A stretch of DNA of 40,398 nucleotides from UHGV virus genome UHGV-0331319. One strand, 5' to 3'. Source of the stretch: a virus. A program made the translations under genes and the position numbers. Below are positions 4,489 to 35,655 of the stretch, in pieces. Position 1 is the first letter of the stretch, and each line of letters opens with the position of its first letter. The notes beneath the pieces were generated by a model. That model was not told the DNA's origin. It ran no database searches and saw nothing but the letters and a program-made list of their open reading frames with translations.

Positions 4489-5019
4489 TCAATCATCCCA
4501 CAGGTTGATTCCTTCCGTATCATCTTCGTCCAAAGAAAGCGCCGCAGGCTTTTTCTTTACTTCTTTATCATTCTTATATTCTTTATCATTCTTGTTAGTT
4601 GTCGGCTCTTTGTCAGGTCTTTGTCGGCTCTTTGTCGGCTCTTTGTCATCTCCCTTGCCACTGACAAGGTCACGGCTCTGATATTTCTCCCAGTTTACAA
4701 TGGTTATGAGTCTTCCTGTCTTTGTCGATGCGTTTGTCAAAAAACCAAGTTTTTCAAATCTCTCAAGCGCGGTTCGCACATTTCTGATTGAAACCCCATC
4801 TCCACATTCCCTAACTAAAGAATTTAGACTTGTAATCAATTGTCCAGGCATGCAAGTAAACTGTTCGCCTTTCCATTCCCACTTATTCTCTTCATGATTT
4901 GCCAATAACAGAATCGTAATAAGCACGACCTTCTGTTCTGGAGAAGAAAGCTGCCATATGGATTTCGATTTCAACTCCCGGTATAACTTCACCCATCCAC
5001 CATTAACCATACTCTCCAT
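4489..5019 (-). CDS. phage replisome organiser / DnaD-like replication initiator
   Basis: N-terminal GWVKLYRELKSKSIW...LLANHEENKWEWKG block typical of phage replisome-organiser N-terminal domains; Lys/Glu-rich repetitive C-terminus encoded by iterons; sits immediately upstream of the primase-helicase. Confidence 0.6.
   Translation of the reverse strand: MESMVNGGWVKLYRELKSKSIWQLSSPEQKVVLITILLLANHEENKWEWKGEQFTCMPGQLITSLNSLVRECGDGVSIRNVRTALERFEKLGFLTNASTKTGRLITIVNWEKYQSRDLVSGKGDDKEPTKSRQRPDKEPTTNKNDKEYKNDKEVKKKPAALSLDEDDTEGINLWDD
4561..4596. repeat. two AT-rich 15-bp direct repeats TTCTTTATCATTCTT adjacent to the iterons (candidate DNA-unwinding element)
   Basis: ttctttatcattctt at 4561-4575 and 4579-4593. 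Confidence 0.45.
4601..4644. repeat. four tandem 11-bp iterons GTC(G/A)G(C/G)TCTTT plus a partial fifth copy
   Basis: gtcggctcttt / gtcaggtcttt / gtcggctcttt / gtcggctcttt read directly; period of one helical turn; inside the replisome-organiser gene. Confidence 0.65.
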
Positions 5020-5539
5020 TCTCCAATCGCTCCTTCAAATCCCTGTACAGAATCTCCCGGATCAATCTGCCAGAAGTCTCTTCCTTACAGAAAACCACAT
5101 TCATGTTGTAGCGGACCATCCAAGCCATCGCAGATGCTGTAAATGCATTTGCATTGACTTTACTTCGATATTTTCCGTTTATGAGATTCTCCCAGCTGGC
5201 ATTTTCACACAGCAAATAAATCCTGCAGCCCTGGTCCATTGCGCGCTCAAATTCTCTCTGAAATCGCTGGCGGCCCTGTGCGAAGCACCTCGCCAGCTCA
5301 TCCAGATCCATTTTTCTCTCCACTGCACAGATTGGGTTTATAGTTGCAGAAACATCATAGATCTTTGATCCATTTGGAAGCGTGGCATTGTAGGCGTAAT
5401 CGCCATATGACAGGGTAGCCGGGGAGTATGGTACTTCAAATGATTCCATCCTCTTCCTGGATCGTTCCGTTGGCTGCTCTCTACGATCCACTAAGATCTC
5501 GAAAGACCTAAGCACTTCCTTTTGCTCAAATATCTCCAT
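5003..5539 (-). CDS. ERCC4 (XPF/Mus81/Hef)-type nuclease
   Basis: ILVDRRE ... GDY ... ERKxxxDL signature blocks of the ERCC4 nuclease domain; GAGGAG + 5 nt + ATG (MEIFEQ). Confidence 0.65.
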   Translation of the reverse strand: MEIFEQKEVLRSFEILVDRREQPTERSRKRMESFEVPYSPATLSYGDYAYNATLPNGSKIYDVSATINPICAVERKMDLDELARCFAQGRQRFQREFERAMDQGCRIYLLCENASWENLINGKYRSKVNANAFTASAMAWMVRYNMNVVFCKEETSGRLIREILYRDLKERLENGEYG

Positions 5540-5547
5540 CTTACTCC

Positions 5548-6144
5548 TCAATCAAACGGAAGCGAATCATCTTCCCTTTCTGGAATCTGCATGAAATCAT
5601 CATCCGCTACACCCTGTTTATTTACCTTATTATTTTGCAGAAGCTTATCTTTTGGTAACTTAAAAGTTTTTGATCTTATTTTCTCTACGGCACACATCTG
5701 AGCCAGATTGGTGGTCCTTTTTACAGTTCTATCATTTGCTTCATACTCTCGCTCATTAAATAGGCCGCCAACCAGTTTTCCTTTGAATTTCTTTTCATCC
5801 CAGTCAAAATGGTATCCTGGATTAGAATCTTCCAATGCCGCTATGACTGTTTTAAATCTTCTCTTAGTCCATCCGTCCTGTTCTGATCCATCGTCATTCG
5901 GAACGTTAAGTAAATAGTTGCAGTGCCATTTTTTGTCCTCTTGCTGCTGGTTTCTGTACTCATTGGCGTAAAAATCCTTATACTCCCCTTCTGCTATATC
6001 GCAACTGATCTTTATGTACTCTCCTTTGCTGTTTTCGCAGACCTCAGCCCCCATGATCCTAAGTACATAACCATCCTTCGGAAGCTGCTGGAAATCAGTG
6101 TACGCCTGAGTTTCGTTGTAATCATTAAATCTTTTAATTGCCAT
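5548..6144 (-). CDS. DUF669-like phage ssDNA-binding/annealing accessory protein (Sak4 partner)
   Basis: N-terminal pattern (FNDYNETQAYTDFQQLPKDGYVLRIMGAEV...ISCDIAEGEYK) and position directly after a Sak4-like ATPase; AAAAGGAGAAGG RBS. Confidence 0.5.
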   Translation of the reverse strand: MAIKRFNDYNETQAYTDFQQLPKDGYVLRIMGAEVCENSKGEYIKISCDIAEGEYKDFYANEYRNQQQEDKKWHCNYLLNVPNDDGSEQDGWTKRRFKTVIAALEDSNPGYHFDWDEKKFKGKLVGGLFNEREYEANDRTVKRTTNLAQMCAVEKIRSKTFKLPKDKLLQNNKVNKQGVADDDFMQIPEREDDSLPFD

Positions 6145-9385: not shown

Positions 9386-9820
9386 ATGGGAGAAATCGAA
9401 CAAATAAAACGTCTTGTTGCGTATTACAAAGGAAATTATGCTACAAATGACCCTTTTGAAATTGCCGACCGCATAGGAGTCCTCTATCAGATAGGTAATT
9501 GTAAGCATGAGGGCTGTTACATGTTTCTGAAAAACCATCGGTATATATTTCTCAGCAACAAATTAAAAGGGATTGAACTAAAAGTTGTTATGGCTCACGA
9601 ATTAGCCCATGCCATTTTTGACAGAAAAGAAAACTGTTATTTTATTCGCAATAAAACTTTGTTGCTTAATTCTAAAACAGAACGTAGAGCAAATCGGTTC
9701 GCGGCGTATCTTTTGATTGATGATGATCTGTTAGAGTATTATGAGAATTACACAAAAGAACAGTTTTGCGACTGTACGGGATTCCCTAAAGAGTTAATTG
9801 AACTGAGGTTAAGACAATGA
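9386..9820 (+). CDS. ImmA/IrrE-family zinc metallopeptidase (anti-repressor protease)
   Basis: HEXXH motif (MAHELAHAIFD); ATG after AGGTGA; paired with the upstream XRE-HTH gene. Confidence 0.75.
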   Translation: MGEIEQIKRLVAYYKGNYATNDPFEIADRIGVLYQIGNCKHEGCYMFLKNHRYIFLSNKLKGIELKVVMAHELAHAIFDRKENCYFIRNKTLLLNSKTERRANRFAAYLLIDDDLLEYYENYTKEQFCDCTGFPKELIELRLRQ

Positions 9821-10887
9821 ACATTTTTACTTTTTTCAAGAACAGATGCAATAGCAATAAAAAAGACAATGTATTATCAGAGACATCAACCATTGATAGC
9901 TTTAATAATATTATAAAGCATAACTTGGAAGAACCTCTAGGTATCATTACAAACTATTCTCAAGACGGCTATGTATTAAGTAACATGGAGAATATTTTAG
10001 TTCCTCAAGCCATGGAAGAATGCCAAACAGATTTTATAAACACTCTGATTAAATTTAATTCTCCAGCTACGCTAAAATTAGTGCTTTTTGATAGTAGTTC
10101 TATTGTTTATAATATTTACAATCCAATTCCGCATATGTTAATTCCAGTTATGACGAACACAGATCTATGGGCTCGTGTGCTTGCTTTTGTATGCTCAGAA
10201 ATCCAAGATAGAACATACAAATTTTTAGAGGTGGAAGCCAAAAATGTTGATAACTATAATAAAATAATCCATTCTGCAGGTGGAGAACAGTTACCCAAAA
10301 TTGTAATTATTGTGAACGAAATTCATGATTTACCAAATACTGCCGAAGATAGTTTATTGCAACTGCTTTTGAAATCTAACCGTGTAGGAATATATTTAGT
10401 TTTATTTTCTAAATTTAGCATTAAAAATCTAGCACTTGGTATAAAAATGGATCTATTAAAAGTATACAGCGGCAGCCAGTTAAATCAGGTATTTAATTTG
10501 ACTAATCAATTATCCGATAATAAGCAAATTAATCTTTCATATGACAACATGGATGGTCATCAGTTCGAGTATTTTTGTGCAACTCTTCTCAAAAAAAATG
10601 GTTTTGTAAACGTCTCTGTTACCCAAGGAAGTGGCGACCACGGTATTGATATTCTAGCAGAGAAAGATGGAATAACTTATGCTATCCAATGTAAATGTTA
10701 CCAATCAGATATAGGAAATTCAGCTATACAGGAAGCTCATTCGGGAAAAGGCATATATAAAAGAGATATTGCCGTTGTTATGACTAACAGATATTTTACT
10801 AAGCAAGCTATAAATGATGCCAATGCTCTTGGCGTAAAATTATGGGATCGAACACAATTAGAAAAGTTTGTAAACAACTCTAAATAA
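9817..10887 (+). CDS. Mrr-type PD-(D/E)xK restriction-endonuclease-domain protein with an N-terminal degenerate FtsK/SpoIIIE-like domain, 356 aa
   Basis: C-terminal GHQFEYFCATLLKKNGF...GSGDHGIDILAEKDG...AIQCKCYQ matches the Mrr catalytic-domain pattern; central LPKIVIIVNEIHDL...LLQLLLKSNRVGIYLVLFSKFS resembles the Walker-B/arginine-finger/ATQRP blocks of FtsK-like ATPases, but no Walker A is visible; strongly AT-rich relative to neighbouring genes. Confidence 0.65.
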   Translation: MNIFTFFKNRCNSNKKDNVLSETSTIDSFNNIIKHNLEEPLGIITNYSQDGYVLSNMENILVPQAMEECQTDFINTLIKFNSPATLKLVLFDSSSIVYNIYNPIPHMLIPVMTNTDLWARVLAFVCSEIQDRTYKFLEVEAKNVDNYNKIIHSAGGEQLPKIVIIVNEIHDLPNTAEDSLLQLLLKSNRVGIYLVLFSKFSIKNLALGIKMDLLKVYSGSQLNQVFNLTNQLSDNKQINLSYDNMDGHQFEYFCATLLKKNGFVNVSVTQGSGDHGIDILAEKDGITYAIQCKCYQSDIGNSAIQEAHSGKGIYKRDIAVVMTNRYFTKQAINDANALGVKLWDRTQLEKFVNNSK

Positions 10888-11065: not shown

Positions 11066-12271
11066 ATGGGACAACTGAGAACACGCAAACGCGGATCCAC
11101 CTGGGAATGGTCCTTTGAAGGCGCCAGGATCAATGGTAAGCGCAACCCGATCAGCCAGGGAGGATATCGCACCAAAGGTGACGCGATCACTGCCGGCACC
11201 CAGGCTAAAGCCGAATACGATAACGCTGGGCGAAGGTTTACACCCTCAGACATCAGTGTTTCGGATTATTTGGATTATTGGTACGAAAATTACGTCAAAA
11301 CAAACCTGGCACACAACACCCAGGTAAGCTACGAGCGTTTACTTCGCGTCCACCTTAAACCTACTTTTGGGAAATACCGGCTTTCAGCGTTGGAAACCGA
11401 TGTTATTCAGAAATGGGTGGACGGCATGAAGCGCCAAGGCTATTCCAAGAGCATGGTCAAAAATACGCTGTCCTGCCTGTCTGGCGCCCTGGGGTACGCC
11501 GTATACCCCTGTAGATATATCAAGTATAATCCCTGCGATTATGCCAAACTCCCCAAAATTGCTGTGTCTGAGGAGACCAAGGCGCACACGGAATATATCT
11601 GTGGCAAAGAGGACTGGACTGCTATCATTGACCGGTTCGGCCCAGACAGCAATTTCTACCTTCCACTTATGACCGGGTATCACTGTGGTACCCGGCTTGG
11701 GGAGACCTATGGCATTGATCTGCTGCATGATGTGGACCTTGACAACCACGCCATAACCATCCGGCATCAGTTGTCCAATGAGGGCGGGAAATGGTACTAT
11801 AGGCCACCAAAATATAATTCCGTACGGACAATAAAGATCCTGCCAGAGTATGAAAGCATCCTGAGGGCTGAAATCCATGAACGCAAAAAGAACATGCTGC
11901 GGTATGGCCAGTACTTTACCCGATCCTACCAAATGGATGATGGTCTAATCTTCCAGGCTCCCGCCAATGTCCAGATTACAGGAACGGAGATTATGCCGAT
12001 CAGCACTAAGGAGAATGGCGAGTTGCTAACCCCCTACTCTTTTAAATACTGTGCCAAGGTCATCCATGAGGAATTGGAAAACCCATTATTCCACAGCCAC
12101 TGCCTACGCCACACACACGGCACGCTGTTGGCAGAGAATGGAGCCCAGCCCAAAACAGTCATGGAACGCCTGGGCCACAAGGACATCAAGACTACCATGA
12201 ACCGTTATGTATTCAACACGGAAAAGATGCAAAACAATGCCATGGTAATTCTGGCAGATGCCATATCGTAG
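11066..12271 (+). CDS. tyrosine-type site-specific integrase, 401 aa
   Basis: C-terminal HCLRHTHGTLLAENG ... LGHKDIKTTMNRYVF (R-H-R-Y catalytic signature); N-terminal arm-binding-like domain; GGAGGAATGATAT-ATG start. Confidence 0.85.
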   Translation: MGQLRTRKRGSTWEWSFEGARINGKRNPISQGGYRTKGDAITAGTQAKAEYDNAGRRFTPSDISVSDYLDYWYENYVKTNLAHNTQVSYERLLRVHLKPTFGKYRLSALETDVIQKWVDGMKRQGYSKSMVKNTLSCLSGALGYAVYPCRYIKYNPCDYAKLPKIAVSEETKAHTEYICGKEDWTAIIDRFGPDSNFYLPLMTGYHCGTRLGETYGIDLLHDVDLDNHAITIRHQLSNEGGKWYYRPPKYNSVRTIKILPEYESILRAEIHERKKNMLRYGQYFTRSYQMDDGLIFQAPANVQITGTEIMPISTKENGELLTPYSFKYCAKVIHEELENPLFHSHCLRHTHGTLLAENGAQPKTVMERLGHKDIKTTMNRYVFNTEKMQNNAMVILADAIS

Positions 12272-13390: not shown

Positions 13391-14230
13391 CTCTCCCAGC
13401 CCCGGCCACCGCAGCGCCCCGTCCTGATCGGGTGTCAACACCACCGGATCCATGGACAACTTGCCGTCCTGGTCCAGATAATACCACTTTCCGCCACTGG
13501 CCTGCAGCCCCTTGACCATGGCTCCATCAGCCCCCAGGTAGTACCAGTCACCCTTGTACTGATACCAGGTGTTGATCACCATGCGACCGGCGCCGTCAAA
13601 CCAGTACCACTTACCGTCTGTATCCAGGTACCAGCTGTTGCGCACACAATCTCCTGTGTTGCCCAGGTAAAAGCTTCGGGATCCATCTTCATTCTGTCTC
13701 CATCCTGATAATTTAGGTTCCTCCGGCTCCGTCACTGCATCATCCTGTATGTATCGTTTTACAGCCACCAGGCCCTTACGCCAGCCCCCAGACGCCCAGG
13801 AGTTATACCGGCTCTTGCAGTAGGCCACCAGATCTTTGTAGGACGGTCTTCCGCTGCCATGTCCGCAGATAATACCATCTCCACAGTACATCTCCACATG
13901 GCCGATCCGCTTTGGCCTGCTGGCATCCGTACCGGCAAACAGCAGCATGTCCCCTGGTCGTAACCGGGACGTGTCAGGGATGCCCTGGGCTATATCCGCA
14001 TCCACTGTGGTCAGTTTGGTAGAGTTGTACATGCCTGCGGTGTTTGTGATCCCGAAGCCTTGCCCTGCCTGCTGATAAGCGTAGCAGATGGAGCTGCTGC
14101 AATCACTGTAATAGTTGCCGTCCTTGTATGCCTTATAGCAGTAATCCCGTAAGGACTGGCTGTATATGTTGCGGCCTATGATCTCTGCATACTTGTCGAT
14201 CACGGCCTGTCTCCTTAATAATGCTGTCAT
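13388..14230 (-). CDS. endolysin: NlpC/P60-type (Cys/His) peptidase domain plus C-terminal choline-binding-type cell-wall-binding repeats
   Basis: catalytic Cys (YSDCSSSICYAY) and His (IGHVEMY) blocks; C-terminal aromatic repeats GKWYWFDGAGRMV / GDWYYLGADGAMV / GKWYYLDQDGKL. Confidence 0.8.
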   Translation of the reverse strand: MTALLRRQAVIDKYAEIIGRNIYSQSLRDYCYKAYKDGNYYSDCSSSICYAYQQAGQGFGITNTAGMYNSTKLTTVDADIAQGIPDTSRLRPGDMLLFAGTDASRPKRIGHVEMYCGDGIICGHGSGRPSYKDLVAYCKSRYNSWASGGWRKGLVAVKRYIQDDAVTEPEEPKLSGWRQNEDGSRSFYLGNTGDCVRNSWYLDTDGKWYWFDGAGRMVINTWYQYKGDWYYLGADGAMVKGLQASGGKWYYLDQDGKLSMDPVVLTPDQDGALRWPGLGE

Positions 14231-17121
14231 GTCGTACCTCCATTTCTAATTTCGTCAATCTGTGCCATGATATCCACGATCACCGCCCTAGTATCCTGCA
14301 CATACTCCACCGCCACGTCTGGTTCCGGCCCTCCTGCGGTAATGGTGATGTGGGTGGTGCCGGTAAAGGTGGTAAGGGCGTTTAGGGCGGATTGGGTCGC
14401 GGCGGGGAGGGGTTCCCAGGTGGGGGCATCCAGGACAAACATTACGTATACATCATGGTCTGTTACATATTGTTTGATGGCTGTATTAACCTCGGCAAAT
14501 GTGGCGGTTGTCAGTACTCCAAGGGCTGTTATTGGCACCGTAATATATATCGCTCCGAGAGAATTGATTGTATAAATATTATCCCTGCCGCCTTTTGGTA
14601 TATTCCAATCGTTAACTATACCAGCTTGCGCTATGTTGCAATAGCCGGTTGCTTTAACCTCATTGCTATATATCCTAGCTTTATTCAAACCGTTATAGCG
14701 TTTTGAATATATGGCAGTGTACCTATTATCAATAATGCAATTGGGATAGGTGCTGGTCATGCTTCCGGCTGATGGTATTACCGTATCTTCGGTTAGTTTG
14801 CCTAACAAGATGTTTCGCTCCACGCCCCACTCTCCATCCTTACACAGGATTCTATCCCTGTACTCTCCAATGCCATATAGTGGGGCTGTCAGTTGGATGG
14901 TTGCGGTCTTGGACTGGTAGGGCTGCCAGGGGAGGGCTGTGCTGCCAGCATTAACCATTACCTTCTGAGTACCAGAGACTATTGCTTCTCCCGCCATACC
15001 ATAATATCCAAATTTGATATATAAGGTATTCATATCTGCTGCATTCGGGATCGATTCGGTTACTTTAGTTACTCCAGTCAGCTGTAGAGTTTTTACTGTT
15101 CCGTTTTTATCATAAAAATTAAAAAAGAAATATGGATAAACAGAGACATTAGAGTATACTGTAAATGTTCTTTCGCTTTTAATTAACGCCATTGTTTCTT
15201 CATGTGTTAGCGAAATTGTATTTCCAAAATTTTCCTGTAATGCACCGCTCCCAGCTACCGTAAAGCTCCCATCGCTATTATTGGTTACTGTAGCACCACC
15301 AGTGCTTTTGTTAGGTATCCTGCTGGCATCAAATAGCTGATCCCCCATCACCATCACATCCAACGGCTGCGGATACTCCTCTGATGGGCTGGGTTTGCCA
15401 CCGGTGTAGGGTTCCCAGGGGAGGGCTGTGCTTCCAGCATTAACCATTACTTTTTGAGTACCAGAGACAATAGACTCATCAGCACGACCATAATACCCAG
15501 TTTGGATATATAGGGTATTCATATCTGCTTCCGCTGGAAGTGACTTGGTAACGCTGGTCACATTTAACAGCAGCAGTCGCATGACCGCTCCGTTTTTGTC
15601 GTAAAATTCAAAGTAGAAATGTGGATACGTTGCAATGTTAGCAGCTGCTGTAAATACCCTATCGTTTCCGATCAATGTCATGGTTTCTTCGTGCGTTAAA
15701 GTACATCTGGTGTCAAGTGTACCTGTCATAGTCCCGGCACCACTAATTGTTATACTGCCATCAGCATTATTGACTATTGTTGCTCCACCCACACTTTTGT
15801 TTAACACTTTACTTGAATCAAACAGTTGCACCCCCGTTGTAACCGTCCCTGTGCTGATAATCGGCTGGGGATAGTCTGGGCTGGGGGAGGGCTGACCTCC
15901 GGTGTAAGGTTCCCAGGGTTTGGCTGTGGATCCGGTATTGATCATAGGATATACAACTGCGCTAAACCCTGACAATCCCTGATATAATTGTAAGAAGCAT
16001 TCGATTTTTGTCTCAGTTCCGTCTACTAAAAAAGATGCATCACTTACAACAGTCGAGGAATCACCATGCCATAGTTTAATCCTCACAAATATCTTGGAAT
16101 CACCTATAGGGGCACTTCCGCTTATGTAGTAAGTTCCGGGTGATAGGGCAACCGTAACAACAGCAGAGTTAGCGGCATTCTGTAATGTATTTCCTGTAAC
16201 TAAAATTCCGCCATCTTCCTCTACAGTAAATTTCACTTCATTATGCATTCGTTCTAATTTAGAACTGTCCAACAACTGCGCACCGGTCGTTGCCACCTGC
16301 TCACTCTCTCCGCTTATCCGCAGGTCAGGTATCGGCGCCTCCCACGCATCCCCCACTGTAACCCGCCCAGTACCGGATGCAGAGCCGATCAGGGCATTGG
16401 CGTACTTAAGATCAGTCTCTCGCTTGTTATAGCCCACAAATGTCTCTTTTTGGCTCTCCACGTAGTCCTTGTTTTCCTGTAACGCCTGTGCTGATGCATC
16501 CGCAGACTGTGCTGCTGCCGTGGCTGATCCCGCAGCCGCAGTCTTGCTGGCCTGGGCATCATTGGCGTATCCCTGGGCAGTGGATACCTTACTCTCCATC
16601 TGCTGTACAAACTGCTCATACCAGGACGGGTCCGGTTCCGGTATACCCCCGCCTATCTCCAGGCCGTCATGGATGGTGTATGTTGCCGGTAGGGTTTTCC
16701 AGATGGTCCGATCCCCCACACTGTTGGTGCCGGTTGCATAGATCATCATCTGGATTGATCCGGGCTCCTGTGTTGCCTGTCCCGGTATCATCCAACACAT
16801 CCTGACGTAATTGTCCGACCATGATACATTACAGGGTACGCCGTCACTGCCACCATAGACTGTCTGGTAGTGGATATACAGATTTTGCTTGGTCAAATCC
16901 ATGGCATCATCATACCGCGGCAGCTGGAAGCCCACAAACTGGGCGTTCTGCTCGCCTCGGACGGATACCTGGTCATTAAAATCTGCAATGCGCTTGTTGG
17001 TGACCGGGACATACTCCGGCTCCGCGTACATGGTGTAGGATGGATAGTTGTTATCCTTGGTCCATGTCTCATCCCCGGCTGCATAAGCCTGTCTTGTAAG
17101 GATCTCGTCTACTGTTGCCAT
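14227..17121 (-). CDS. large tail fibre / host-specificity protein, 964 aa, with an internally triplicated roughly 160-aa module
   Basis: protein repeats ...STA(K/L)PWEPYTGG(Q/K)PSPS(P/E)(D/E)YPQP...; Ala/Gln-rich coiled segment; position between holin and endolysin. Confidence 0.6.
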   Translation of the reverse strand: MATVDEILTRQAYAAGDETWTKDNNYPSYTMYAEPEYVPVTNKRIADFNDQVSVRGEQNAQFVGFQLPRYDDAMDLTKQNLYIHYQTVYGGSDGVPCNVSWSDNYVRMCWMIPGQATQEPGSIQMMIYATGTNSVGDRTIWKTLPATYTIHDGLEIGGGIPEPDPSWYEQFVQQMESKVSTAQGYANDAQASKTAAAGSATAAAQSADASAQALQENKDYVESQKETFVGYNKRETDLKYANALIGSASGTGRVTVGDAWEAPIPDLRISGESEQVATTGAQLLDSSKLERMHNEVKFTVEEDGGILVTGNTLQNAANSAVVTVALSPGTYYISGSAPIGDSKIFVRIKLWHGDSSTVVSDASFLVDGTETKIECFLQLYQGLSGFSAVVYPMINTGSTAKPWEPYTGGQPSPSPDYPQPIISTGTVTTGVQLFDSSKVLNKSVGGATIVNNADGSITISGAGTMTGTLDTRCTLTHEETMTLIGNDRVFTAAANIATYPHFYFEFYDKNGAVMRLLLLNVTSVTKSLPAEADMNTLYIQTGYYGRADESIVSGTQKVMVNAGSTALPWEPYTGGKPSPSEEYPQPLDVMVMGDQLFDASRIPNKSTGGATVTNNSDGSFTVAGSGALQENFGNTISLTHEETMALIKSERTFTVYSNVSVYPYFFFNFYDKNGTVKTLQLTGVTKVTESIPNAADMNTLYIKFGYYGMAGEAIVSGTQKVMVNAGSTALPWQPYQSKTATIQLTAPLYGIGEYRDRILCKDGEWGVERNILLGKLTEDTVIPSAGSMTSTYPNCIIDNRYTAIYSKRYNGLNKARIYSNEVKATGYCNIAQAGIVNDWNIPKGGRDNIYTINSLGAIYITVPITALGVLTTATFAEVNTAIKQYVTDHDVYVMFVLDAPTWEPLPAATQSALNALTTFTGTTHITITAGGPEPDVAVEYVQDTRAVIVDIMAQIDEIRNGGTT
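14924..14984. repeat. about 61-bp near-identical direct repeat (copy 1) inside the fibre gene
   Basis: tgccaggggagggctgtgctgccagcattaaccattaccttctgagtaccagagac is repeated at 15413-15473 with about 3 mismatches; a third degenerate copy lies near 15901. Confidence 0.6.
15413..15473. repeat. about 61-bp near-identical direct repeat (copy 2) inside the fibre gene
   Basis: see copy 1. Confidence 0.6.
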
Positions 17122-31761: not shown

Positions 31762-31879
31762 TCTCTTTTCCTTTCTTGCCCGTCCTTAGGTTATTTATAG
31801 GTGTGTAACCATCCACCAACGGCTGACTATTTTAGGTCTTATCTTCTGACCGATTTTTGAACATAATAAAAGCACCTGA

Positions 31880-32044
31880 CTAATCAGATGCTTCACTCTC
31901 CCATTTATATTTATAATCCTTACATATATCCTCAGGCGGCTTTTGGGCCAATACGATTTCTCTTGGTATGCCTTGCGGACATACCCTGCATTTCATACCC
32001 TTTTCACAGTATTCACATTTTAGGCATATAGGGATTACAATCAC
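31880..32044 (-). CDS. small zinc-ribbon-like protein
   Basis: CLKCEYC...CRVCPQG (two CxxC pairs); GTG start overlapping the upstream stop, preceded by GGAGGA. Confidence 0.35.
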   Translation of the reverse strand: MIVIPICLKCEYCEKGMKCRVCPQGIPREIVLAQKPPEDICKDYKYKWESEASD

Positions 32045-32223
32045 TCTAATTCCTCCATCCTCTGTTTCCATAATGGCACATATAATCCTGGCCGCACCAG
32101 GTGATAGTTCTTTAAATAATATGTCCGTTCAGTTTCATACTCTTCCGGACTCATATCATCACGCCAGAAAGGCACCTCCTTCAATGTGGCCGATGCCCAG
32201 CCACTACTTTCGTCTACCGTCAT
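32041..32223 (-). CDS. hypothetical small protein, 60 aa
   Basis: ATG (MTVDESSGW...) in the minus-strand string between the MuF gene and the scaffold gene. Confidence 0.35.
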   Translation of the reverse strand: MTVDESSGWASATLKEVPFWRDDMSPEEYETERTYYLKNYHLVRPGLYVPLWKQRMEELE

Positions 32224-34003
32224 ATTCCACAAGCCCCCTTCCTTTTGTGTAATCCCTTAAAAGATTCTCTACAATTAATGATTCTCTACGTATACTTCGC
32301 TCCGACATAGGTATTGTTCCTGCTCTGACCTGTTGATTCAGTTCATTTAATTCTTTCTCATATAAATCATCAAATATCACCGATTTCAGGACATCACCGG
32401 AACGTTCCGCAACATATTTGACGCCATCGTTTCTTGCTGCTATCATAACAGGTATTTCTTTTGTTGTCAAAAGCGTCCTCATATCCGGTTCCGAAAAGGA
32501 ACTGTCTGTGTTATGGTTATGAACGAATGCATATTGTGCATCTGGGTTTTTGTCTAAATGCTTCCAGAATCGATACCCTACCTCATTCTCAGCCTGATTG
32601 GTCTCATAATATTCTATTGCTCCGGTTTTCAGATTTACCAAATGCATATGCTCATATCCGTCCATGCCTCCCTTTTGTGCAACATCCCTTATTGCTCCAG
32701 ATAACCCTTTATTTACTACGTCCGTATATCCATCAAGCTTTACACTGTAGTCATTATCAGGATGATATCCGACTTTCGTATTGGTATTTCTGATGGCCTC
32801 ATTTGCACCCGCCTCCAGTTTTGGTATCCGTAATCGTTCGCGCTGCTGCCGCAGACCCATTTCCTTGGAAAAATCCACATAGGTCTTATTGGTTAGCCGT
32901 AGCCGGCACTTAGCAGCTACTATCTCCTCCTTGTCCGCTTCACCGCTCACCAAAAGTTCCACGTCCTGCTTCTGTTTCCGGATGGTGCGTTCCAGTTTCC
33001 GCTGATGCTGCAAAGCCCCATATGTATCGTATTCCCGGCCTCTGTATACCTTTTTCTCATTTTCCCGCTTGTTCTGCTCCGCCAGCCATTCATCCGTGTA
33101 CTTGCGCTTGCTGATGCCCAGAAGGAAAGGAAACTTGATGTGATAGCAGTTAATCCCTGCAAACCCAAGCATTTCACCCTCACCACAGACTATCCGCATC
33201 TCCTCCGAAGAATATACACGTCCTTGCCATGACTGATGGTTTTTGTATCCGGTCCCAGTGTTCCTGGCGCCCATGTGCCAGTCTACTTCCCAGTGGTCCG
33301 TCCCCAGCTCCTCGGCGTTTTTGTCACTGACCTGTTTGGTCATCTGGGCCACACCTGTCATCACTGCACGTCTTGCTGCCACCTCGATCCGATCAGACTT
33401 GCCAGATGCAGACTTGTCTGACGCATAATCTACGGTACGGATGCCGCTGGCCGTCATCTCATCAATCACATCACCGATAGCCTGACTATATGTCTTGGTG
33501 CCCGTGGTAATCCCCAGCATGGCCTTATCCAGGCTGCGTTCCAGATACTCTGACAACGGAGTAAACACCTTTTTACCGCCGCCCATTGGCACGTTAAATC
33601 CGGTAGTCTGTGTGATGTTTTCCAGTGGCCTCAATGTATCCTTGGTCTGCCGCTTGGCTGCATCCACGACCTGCTGGAGCCATTGATTGTCCCTGTAAGG
33701 TAAATAATCCCTACCAGCAGCCTCGTAAATCTCCTTGTTGCGTATGTAATCAGACCGCGCTGCCTGCTCATAGATATCATCCACTTGCAGGTCAGTCTTT
33801 TCCAATGCCTTACCAATCAGTTGCTTAATCCGGATCCGGCTTGTCCCTATGGCGTCCATCCTGATCAGCAGCCAGTCAATAACTGGGGTAACCTGTGCGG
33901 TCTCCTTGATCCTCTGTATGATCTCATCCATAATGGACAGTTCCAGCGCCGTCATGGTGCGCTCTAATGGCTTTGGCAGCTTCTCCAGTTCCTCAGGTGT
34001 CAT
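32204..34003 (-). CDS. MuF / SPP1 gp7-type minor head protein fused to a C-terminal RadC/JAB (MPN)-like domain, 599 aa
   Basis: N-terminal about 330 aa consistent with a gp7/MuF head-morphogenesis domain directly after the portal; C-terminal YAFVHNHNTDSSFSEPDMRTLLTTKEI resembles the RadC/JAMM core (I-x-H-N-H-P-S-G ... S-x-x-D ... T..L) with candidate upstream Glu residues (EYYE). Confidence 0.7.
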   Translation of the reverse strand: MTPEELEKLPKPLERTMTALELSIMDEIIQRIKETAQVTPVIDWLLIRMDAIGTSRIRIKQLIGKALEKTDLQVDDIYEQAARSDYIRNKEIYEAAGRDYLPYRDNQWLQQVVDAAKRQTKDTLRPLENITQTTGFNVPMGGGKKVFTPLSEYLERSLDKAMLGITTGTKTYSQAIGDVIDEMTASGIRTVDYASDKSASGKSDRIEVAARRAVMTGVAQMTKQVSDKNAEELGTDHWEVDWHMGARNTGTGYKNHQSWQGRVYSSEEMRIVCGEGEMLGFAGINCYHIKFPFLLGISKRKYTDEWLAEQNKRENEKKVYRGREYDTYGALQHQRKLERTIRKQKQDVELLVSGEADKEEIVAAKCRLRLTNKTYVDFSKEMGLRQQRERLRIPKLEAGANEAIRNTNTKVGYHPDNDYSVKLDGYTDVVNKGLSGAIRDVAQKGGMDGYEHMHLVNLKTGAIEYYETNQAENEVGYRFWKHLDKNPDAQYAFVHNHNTDSSFSEPDMRTLLTTKEIPVMIAARNDGVKYVAERSGDVLKSVIFDDLYEKELNELNQQVRAGTIPMSERSIRRESLIVENLLRDYTKGRGLVEYDGRRK

Positions 34004-34262
34004 AAGGGCATTCCTTCGTACAAAACGTAGTCTTGGTCACACTCCCTGTGATATCTCTATGTTTTTCACTAGCCTCGTATGGACATATAAATTCAACTTC
34101 GCTTGGACGGCATACAAGCCTGGAAAACTTTGACACCCCCTTCGGTGTATTTGGTTCATTATACTCTATTACTGCTTTCCCGCACTCAATTGATAATTTA
34201 GTCATGTCATTTGATGATATTTCTATATTCCCTATCCTGACCCATAGATCTTTTAACTTCAT
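33993..34262 (-). CDS. hypothetical small protein between portal and MuF, 89 aa, several Cys
   Basis: ORF in string. Confidence 0.45.
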   Translation of the reverse strand: MKLKDLWVRIGNIEISSNDMTKLSIECGKAVIEYNEPNTPKGVSKFSRLVCRPSEVEFICPYEASEKHRDITGSVTKTTFCTKECPYDT

Positions 34263-34266
34263 ATCC

Positions 34267-35655
34267 TCACTCCTCCGTCAATGCTGGTTCCGGCAGGTTC
34301 TTGGCTGCCTCCTCCAGGGTTTCGCCATACCACTTGGCTCTGTACTCTGCCAGGGACATTACGCCCATTGCTACATCCGCCCGGTCAGTCTGACGCTCCA
34401 ATTCCGCATCTACGATCACGCTGTCGTCCCAATCAGATGACACCTCATAGTCGCTGCCAGCTGGAATTAAGCCATACAGTGCCGCCCAGAAACTCATGGC
34501 ATACACCAGGTCCTCCAGGGCATCCTGTAATGCCATCTGGGTATCGGACACCATCACATAGGAGCGCTGCCTGCTGGTCTTAATCTCAGTGGCGGTCTTA
34601 TCCACGCTCTGTGGATCTGACAGGGTGCCGTAGGCCAAGTTGCAGTTAAACTCCACCAGCTTCAGCTGGTTATTGAATCCATTAAATAAAGCTGTATCTC
34701 GAATCTCTGGGCTGAATGTATCAATGAATGGCTTATCTGTAGCACCGGTATTGTAATCAACGTTACGATATAGCCGCTCCTGGCCTCCTGGATATTCATA
34801 TTTATCCTGATCCTGGTTGTACTTAAGTAAGGATGTGGCTATGTGCACGGCCAGTTGTGTGCCCTCATACTCCCAGCATATGTTGGAATACCGCCTGTCT
34901 GCCTCTTTGATGAGCCCAATTGCCCTGGAGTATACCGACACCCCAAGCGGACTGTCCGAATCGTCCGCATTGGCCAATGGTACCTTGAAATATCCGAACA
35001 GTAACCGATCCGCGCCCTCAAGTAACAGTTCTGGTACCAACTCGGACCATCTGTCAATAGAGTTGACCGCCACCTCACTGCCAAGGTTATAATCATTTGT
35101 AGCCACAAAGGCTCGGTTGGTAATATGCACCCGGTTCCCCTGCAGCGTATGCACTTCCAGTCTGGTATATATCTTCTGCCCCTTACGGAACTGCTCCGTG
35201 AATACGCACTGCGTAAGCCGACCAGAACTATCGAAACCCAAGGGAAAGAAGCAATCTGCTTGTACGAACTGTACTTCAATTCCCTGCTTCGTGATATATG
35301 GCTTCATAATCAGGCCACCTTTTGCGCATCCGTACTCAACATACCGCCGCAGATCCTTGATCACTTTACGCTGATATTGCTCATTCAGGTAATCCGCCGC
35401 TGGCCCTCCAGTCACCTCAGACTTAAGTTCCAACGTTACCAAGCGCGCAATCTCTGAGGCAATAGCTGGCGCAAGGTTGGCGCTGAACACATCCTTATTA
35501 TTCACCCACGGTGACCTGTTTTCATACATCCTGGTCCAAAGTTCAATCATGTTTGCCATCTGGGACGTCATACACACATCCACCTGGGTGTCCGCATCCT
35601 TATTCAGGACATTCATGATCAAGTCTAACATCTTTGTGAATTTCGTCATCATCAC
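34267..35655 (-). CDS. portal protein
   Basis: 462 aa, immediately downstream of terL; SPP1-type module order. Confidence 0.8.
   Translation of the reverse strand: MMMTKFTKMLDLIMNVLNKDADTQVDVCMTSQMANMIELWTRMYENRSPWVNNKDVFSANLAPAIASEIARLVTLELKSEVTGGPAADYLNEQYQRKVIKDLRRYVEYGCAKGGLIMKPYITKQGIEVQFVQADCFFPLGFDSSGRLTQCVFTEQFRKGQKIYTRLEVHTLQGNRVHITNRAFVATNDYNLGSEVAVNSIDRWSELVPELLLEGADRLLFGYFKVPLANADDSDSPLGVSVYSRAIGLIKEADRRYSNICWEYEGTQLAVHIATSLLKYNQDQDKYEYPGGQERLYRNVDYNTGATDKPFIDTFSPEIRDTALFNGFNNQLKLVEFNCNLAYGTLSDPQSVDKTATEIKTSRQRSYVMVSDTQMALQDALEDLVYAMSFWAALYGLIPAGSDYEVSSDWDDSVIVDAELERQTDRADVAMGVMSLAEYRAKWYGETLEEAAKNLPEPALTEE

Follow-up and report, generated by a model that had tools for sequence, protein, structure and literature searches.

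The 599-aa minor head protein encoded by the phage genome UHGV-0331319 (hereafter the window, meaning the whole stretch of 40,398 nucleotides that was analysed) ends in a divergent RadC-like JAB domain, and its gene is followed and overlapped by a gene for a small acidic protein. On balance, we favour the reading that these two proteins are a capsid-targeted toxin/effector and its cognate immunity (inhibitor) protein, encoded by an obligate two-gene cassette, because the obligate small partner together with its orphan chromosomal copies fits the logic of MuF fusions (PMC5576092, PMC11699363). The features concerned are located as follows.

32204-34003, minus strand: MuF2-JAB fusion ORF of 599 aa, from the ORF call and family matches (stop codon 32204-32206)
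32870-34003, minus strand: MuF-superfamily domain, residues 1-378 (Pfam PF06152, Phage_min_cap2, E = 2.4e-103)
32738-32869, minus strand: linker, residues 379-422, mostly of low confidence in AF2; the in-frame stop of related 'split' loci falls here
32207-32737, minus strand: divergent RadC-like JAB/MPN+ domain, residues 423-599
32651-32653, minus strand: codon of E451, the predicted catalytic Glu at the start of beta1
32483-32521, minus strand: H495-N-H497-x6-S504-x-x-D507, the predicted metal-binding/catalytic motif, aligned on the HNH and S..D of RadC
32041-32223, minus strand: partner gene, encoding a 60-aa acidic helical protein (MTVDESSGWASATLKEVPFWRDDMSPEEYETERTYY...PLWKQ)
32442-32470, minus strand: sigma-70-like site inside the JAB coding region (TTGACA-17-TATGAT, 11/12, extended -10)
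34267-35655, minus strand: portal gene
31869-31894, minus strand: terminator-like hairpin

The window contains integrase, anti-repressor, primase/helicase, tape measure and endolysin-like genes in addition to a head module, and is therefore essentially a complete temperate siphovirus. As assigned with PHROGs, the head module runs in the order small terminase, large terminase, portal, the 599-aa ORF, scaffold, major capsid/head protein and head-tail adaptor, with the portal gene just upstream of the MuF-JAB gene. PF06152 matched the 599-aa protein with 346 bits against a cut-off of 26.3 bits, and PHROG 581 ('minor head protein') also matched residues 1-378; PF06152 belongs to the MuF superfamily as 'MuF2' (Jamet et al. 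2017, PMC5576092). The two family matches and the position in the head module confirm the assignment to MuF-family minor head proteins made in a preliminary description of this DNA. The extra C-terminal domain of ~250 aa described there exists, but the extension past the MuF domain is 221 aa long and consists of a ~44-aa low-confidence linker and a folded module of ~180-195 aa. The elements of the JAB domain follow the order alpha1, beta1, beta2, alpha2, beta3 (HNH), alpha3 (S..D), beta4, beta5 and a C-terminal helical hairpin. Note that the sole ORF between the portal and MuF-JAB genes, at 33993-34262 on the minus strand, encodes 89 aa and had no match in PHROG or PADLOC; a like-sized ORF occupies the same slot in locus L095.

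Among cultured phages, the nearest relatives infect Mediterraneibacter gnavus and Acutalibacter muris; they have a short MuF protein and other genes in the slot after it, and the common part is MuF only, at 42% identity. The minor head protein of Ruminococcus phage RG-TP1 is 42% identical over the MuF part and is devoid of the C-terminal extension. The extension is found elsewhere: among 75 long relatives, PF06152 was present in 38, PF04233 (MuF) in 29 and VG15 in 3, and two were large polyvalent proteins (992 aa and 1167 aa), one with PBECR3 and one with ART-PolyVal, in which the JAB module lies at the extreme C-terminus. Many gut-phage proteins of 485-633 aa in BFVD have the same architecture and are labelled only 'Minor capsid protein'. 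One further, apparent fusion, of the JAB module to an F420-hydrogenase beta-subunit-like N-terminus (P0012, PF04432, 303 aa, from an ENA contig), was rejected as a chimeric assembly; its joint is a shared 'EEKFAF', and the intact hydrogenase-type proteins P0102, P0104, P0116 and P0137 continue differently.

A word-indexed search for relatives of the C-terminal module returned 13, and an exhaustive profile search returned 513 cluster representatives, 82 of them below 1e-30. The peptide quoted in the preliminary description, FVHNHNTDSSFSEPDMRTLLT, corresponds to residues 493-513, and the H-x-H-x(6-7)-S-x-x-D core read from it was present in its x6 form in every protein whose match covers the motif region (123/123), while the matches lacking it were fragments or frameshifted reads. 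The spacer of six residues between HxH and Ser is one residue shorter than the x7 of canonical JAMM/RadC proteins. Candidate Glu ligands had been suspected upstream, and in fact E451, a residue that played no part in sequence selection, was 100% conserved in a domain alignment of 112 cluster representatives with identities down to ~20%. H495, H497, S504 and D507 were also 100% conserved in this alignment, and G445 (97%), N496 (96%), G527 (91%) and E574 (89%) came close. Among 75 full-length proteins, E451, H495, H497, S504 and D507 were the sole invariant columns, so that the Glu/His/His/Ser/Asp set is complete and invariant in both alignments. H-N-H is 96-100% conserved in the family; the window protein reads HNHNTD, and the RadC signature, HNHPSG..S..D, occurs in distant members only. 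The motif is not due to chance, since it is invariant across relatives down to ~20% identity, and, as judged from sequence, the JAB-type active site is very probably intact.

We next placed the module among known families. On its own, it had no significant match in Pfam, NCBIfam, PHROGs, PADLOC or PDB sequences. The window protein did not match Pfam RadC (PF04002), for which relatives reached E = 0.0014 at best, nor Tox-JAB-1/Toxin-JAB1 (PF15659), which one of 24 relatives matched at E = 6e-4; individual relatives also matched Prok-JAB at E = 0.12, and all these RadC, Toxin-JAB1 and Prok-JAB matches were under the curated thresholds. The family profile placed HNH and S..D on those of the RadC structure 2qlc (E = 0.28) and likewise aligned them with those of E. 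coli YicR. Comparison by hhalign with a 30-sequence RadC alignment gave a probability of 50% and E = 1.6e-4 over no more than 38 columns surrounding the motif, where the MuF-linked JAB family has a one-residue deletion. The module answers to the JAB fold, and the agreement of its predicted ligands with a JAMM zinc site is one of secondary-structure positions only. The Foldseek search against PDB did not bear out the relationship at the level of structure, as it gave no significant match and the best hits (E of 0.14 at best) were only APOBEC/TadA deaminase-fold proteins. Given the complete invariant residue set and the alignment to RadC, the JAB/RadC-like domain claimed in the preliminary description holds, and we conclude from the sequence comparisons that the C-terminal module is a real JAB-superfamily domain, catalytically intact by motif, which forms a new clade nearest RadC.

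RadC is the best sequence-level relative of the MuF-linked family. Both share the H-N-H core and the S-x-x-D on the next helix, and the P-S-G that follows H-N-H in RadC proteins (PF04002; YicR, prophage YfjY/LfgB, 2qlc) occurs in distant members only. However, the MuF-linked family remains under the Pfam threshold, has an HxH-Ser loop one residue shorter, has one more helix at its N-terminus, and ends in a conserved helical hairpin (E574, G562); furthermore, it is always linked to MuF here and always accompanied by a small partner. RadC is frequent in prophages and polyvalent proteins (PMC5512222), and its biochemical function is still unsettled, a 2025 review naming metalloproteases as the only structural neighbours and giving no assigned function. 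Aravind's group predicted nuclease-like activity for RadC and Tox-JAB domains (PMC5512222, PMC3482391), and one preprint reported protease activity for the prophage RadC-like YfjY/LfgB. The chemistry of the JAB domain may accordingly be hydrolysis of either a peptide/isopeptide bond or nucleic acid. The Tox-JAB polymorphic toxins described in 2012 (PMC3482391) are, like the family here, divergent RadC-like JAB domains at the C-terminal tip of toxins with dedicated immunity, which is a prediction in the present case. Those toxins are delivered by RHS/T2SS/T6SS/T7SS and have Imm65 or NTF2-type immunity, whereas delivery here would be by MuF and the capsid, and the candidate for immunity, a helical protein of 60 aa, is unrelated to those types.

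The partner gene begins with an ATG at 32223, ~10 nt past the Shine-Dalgarno sequence GGAAGGGGG, and its first 20 nt coincide with the end of the JAB gene. Related loci were gathered from viral and genome collections with a degenerate DNA pattern for FAF[VIM]HNHN; pattern matches from outside Clostridia were mostly due to chance and were removed with the family HMM, only matches to which were kept. We added the loci of close (P0002, P0005) and distant (P0090, P0142, P0094) JAB relatives. In each of the 39 loci that include the 3' end of a JAB gene (33 unique pairs), this end is followed and overlapped by a homologous ORF of 53-66 aa; the loci span MuF1, MuF2 and polyvalent-protein architectures and include the HNHPSG clade from activated sludge and the 1167-aa polyvalent protein. 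With a pI of 4.3-5.5, the partner is acidic, and it has the conserved pattern W-A..L-K-E-x-P-F-W-R-D-x-M-x-P-E-E-Y-x-x-E-R-x-Y...Y-x-P-L-W-K-Q. Its subtypes track the JAB clades, a PFFRDGMT variant accompanying the HNHPSG clade. The partner had no Pfam or PHROG match, and a profile search returned 428 clusters, none of which was annotated. The AF2 model of the partner (pLDDT 84) comprises an extended N-terminal segment and three helices. We consider that the partner is probably an inhibitor, i.e., an immunity protein.

In some phages, a tandem-duplicated partner of 103-116 aa follows MuF-JAB, as at 5798-6107 in L026 (reverse-complement coordinates) and 5001-5351 in L105 (P0160). The sigma-70-like site is ~220 nt upstream of the partner gene and is a weak lead; similar sites occur at two fixed positions in relatives but lie inside conserved codons. 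A small Cys-rich ORF (CxxCxxC...CxxC; 31880-32071, minus strand) overlaps the end of the partner gene, with a likely GTG start at 32044 preceded by GGAGGA. It had no PHROG match and no homologue in any related locus, and for the latter reason was rejected as a member of the cassette. The terminator-like hairpin ends the block of MuF-JAB, partner and Cys-rich ORFs ahead of the scaffold gene.

Several loci seemed to carry a stand-alone JAB gene after MuF. These were rejected as clean separate genes because they are in-frame stop or frameshift variants: the 'split' loci have a single homologous frame running through MuF and the JAB module, broken by one in-frame stop. L001 has a lone in-frame TAG (5821-5823) between MuF and the linker plus JAB, and L004 (5950-5952), L005 and L006, which come from three samples, have a lone in-frame TAA in the linker; in L016, the interruption is a frameshift. 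Both the JAB gene and the partner stay intact in the split loci, which could reflect dosing by read-through, nonsense alleles or internal starts.

We also looked at partner copies away from JAB genes. The widespread partners P0189 (at least 300 contigs), P0183 and P0160 all sit after MuF2-JAB genes. However, P0162 (L102-L104, 5001-5318) is a 105-aa protein in which one partner domain of each subtype is joined, and in several contigs from Clostridia its gene is flanked by htpG on one side and asparaginase/aspS genes on the other, with neither JAB nor phage genes closer than 5 kb. L101 encodes three partner domains of two subtypes (4940-5555; P0163 and an extra copy) and no JAB gene, yet retains '...CMEVQT', a remnant of the C-terminal tip of JAB. 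The evidence for orphans thus comprises two independent locus types only (L101 and L102-L104), and these loci could be prophage remnants. In polymorphic toxin systems, orphan and mixed-type arrays are typical of the immunity genes (PMC3482391; PMC11699363). Note that a CRISPR-like array directly adjoins the orphan partners in L101 (6263-6700), with a period of ~68 and a 33-nt repeat, ATTTCAATCCACGCTTCCCG.GAGGGGAGCGAC.

MuF domains are head components thought to bring fused effectors into the next host (PMC5512222), and MuF toxins occur in temperate phages, usually with a small immunity ORF after them (PMC5576092). Apk2 and Bxa, the two characterised MuF toxins, are neutralised by adjacent small proteins (PMC11699363). 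The cassette described here has the layout of these polymorphic toxins (Jamet et al. 2017; Apk2, Bxa): a gene close behind that of the portal in a temperate phage encodes MuF1 or MuF2 at the N-terminus and a variable enzymatic domain at the C-terminus, and the small ORF directly downstream, which co-varies with the enzymatic domain, would be the immunity gene. Polyimmunity/orphan loci are known for MuF toxin systems, and toxin-less partner copies were found here too, in few examples (L101, L102-L104). On the other hand, a JAB-like hydrolase is not among the cargos listed for MuF in PMC5512222, PMC5576092 and PMC3482391, and neither JAB nor RadC is mentioned in the text or supplements of PMC5576092; the partner, having no Pfam or PHROG match, is a new family relative to known MuF immunity proteins.

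In the course of events that we infer, including packaging, ejection and partner binding, the MuF domain would dock the enzyme at the procapsid portal and thereby carry it with the DNA to the next cell, by analogy with MuF/SPP1 gp7 and the MuF toxins. The partner, given its strict co-occurrence and overlap with the JAB gene, would be translated by coupling to that gene and would keep the enzyme inactive in the producing cell, perhaps also in lysogens. In a recipient devoid of the partner, the JAB domain would hydrolyse a host target, presumably with toxic effect, and bacteria that keep orphan mixed-subtype tandem partners could neutralise incoming enzymes.

An unlikely alternative is that JAB is a morphogenetic or self-processing peptidase, which cuts the MuF linker or the polyvalent proteins in the procapsid or after ejection and whose activity is timed by the partner. 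JAB invariably comes last in the protein, also in the polyvalent proteins of 992 aa and 1167 aa, and is preceded by a long flexible linker (low confidence in AF2); in addition, releasing peptidases are common in polymorphic toxins (PMC3482391), and the protease activity reported in the preprint for YfjY/LfgB is in line with such a role. However, in most members MuF is the only part there to be released, and L001 has a separate S78-type prohead protease, so that JAB is not a general head protease. Orphan partners on host chromosomes are also hard to square with a purely internal assembly step.

We regard it as somewhat less probable still that the partner is no inhibitor and serves instead as a chaperone/adaptor for folding or loading MuF-JAB, or as a co-packaged cofactor of the enzyme. 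The strict 1:1 synteny and the overlap suggest co-translation, and tandem partner duplications occur within phages too (L026, L105), but the intact two-subtype orphans that lie on chromosomes outside a phage context (L102-L104) are arranged like polyimmunity loci.

The preliminary description proposed that a capsid-delivered JAB isopeptidase strips the ubiquitin-like modifications of Cap2-type CBASS or Bil-type defences, as a pre-emptive counter-defence. Peptidase activity, even that of a deconjugase, is possible for the JAB domain, but this particular role found no specific support and appears improbable. The domain bears the RadC-type H-N-H(-P-S-G) signature rather than a DUB-type one, and the PADLOC models of defence-system JAB proteins gave no match at E<=1. 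Cap3 (type II CBASS) and BilC, the JAB isopeptidases of these systems, have no sequence-level match to the module, and no Ubl, E1 or E2 gene lies nearby; the neighbours are head genes, MuF-JAB being part of a phage structural module. The partner was considered as a ubiquitin-like substrate and rejected, since its AF2 model is helical without strands and is not a beta-grasp. Finally, that the C-terminal region is a non-catalytic structural extension with a coincidental motif, as the absence of a significant Foldseek PDB match and of a curated family match might suggest, is hardly credible because, in relatives with as little as ~20% identity, the domain has diverged around five putative catalytic residues that do not vary.

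Returning to the effector and immunity reading, it can be extended to an arms race between phage and host, a speculation that we think unlikely as a whole. An injected RadC-like JAB protease would destroy some factor of the host, which might be a defence protein or an antitoxin, bacteria would answer with chromosomal mixed-subtype tandem 'anti-JAB' inhibitors, one of them beside a CRISPR array, and in some phages the enzyme dose per capsid might be set by read-through of the stop between MuF and JAB. If this were true, the pair would offer the first tractable handle on the role of RadC-type JAB domains. These domains abound in prophages, plasmids and polyvalent proteins, and for decades there has been no agreement on whether they act in DNA repair, as nucleases or as proteases. 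The pair, an enzyme and a 60-aa putative neutraliser, is genetically compact and abundant in phages of human and animal gut Clostridia, and it would add a new cargo type and a new candidate immunity family to the MuF capsid-delivery route. The annotation of a few hundred database proteins of this family, labelled 'minor capsid protein' or 'hypothetical' could now be improved.

Three further genes of the window were noted. A 964-aa ORF at 14227-17121 on the minus strand, between the tail genes and the endolysin-like gene, had no PHROG match at E<=1e-5 and may encode a receptor-binding or tail-fibre protein. On the plus strand, opposite to the structural genes, the gene at 9817-10887 specifies an FtsK/SpoIIIE-like protein and adjoins the integrase gene (11066-12271). 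The product of the ORF at 315-1280 on the minus strand is a protein with a radical SAM domain (phrog_9298, E = 2e-75).
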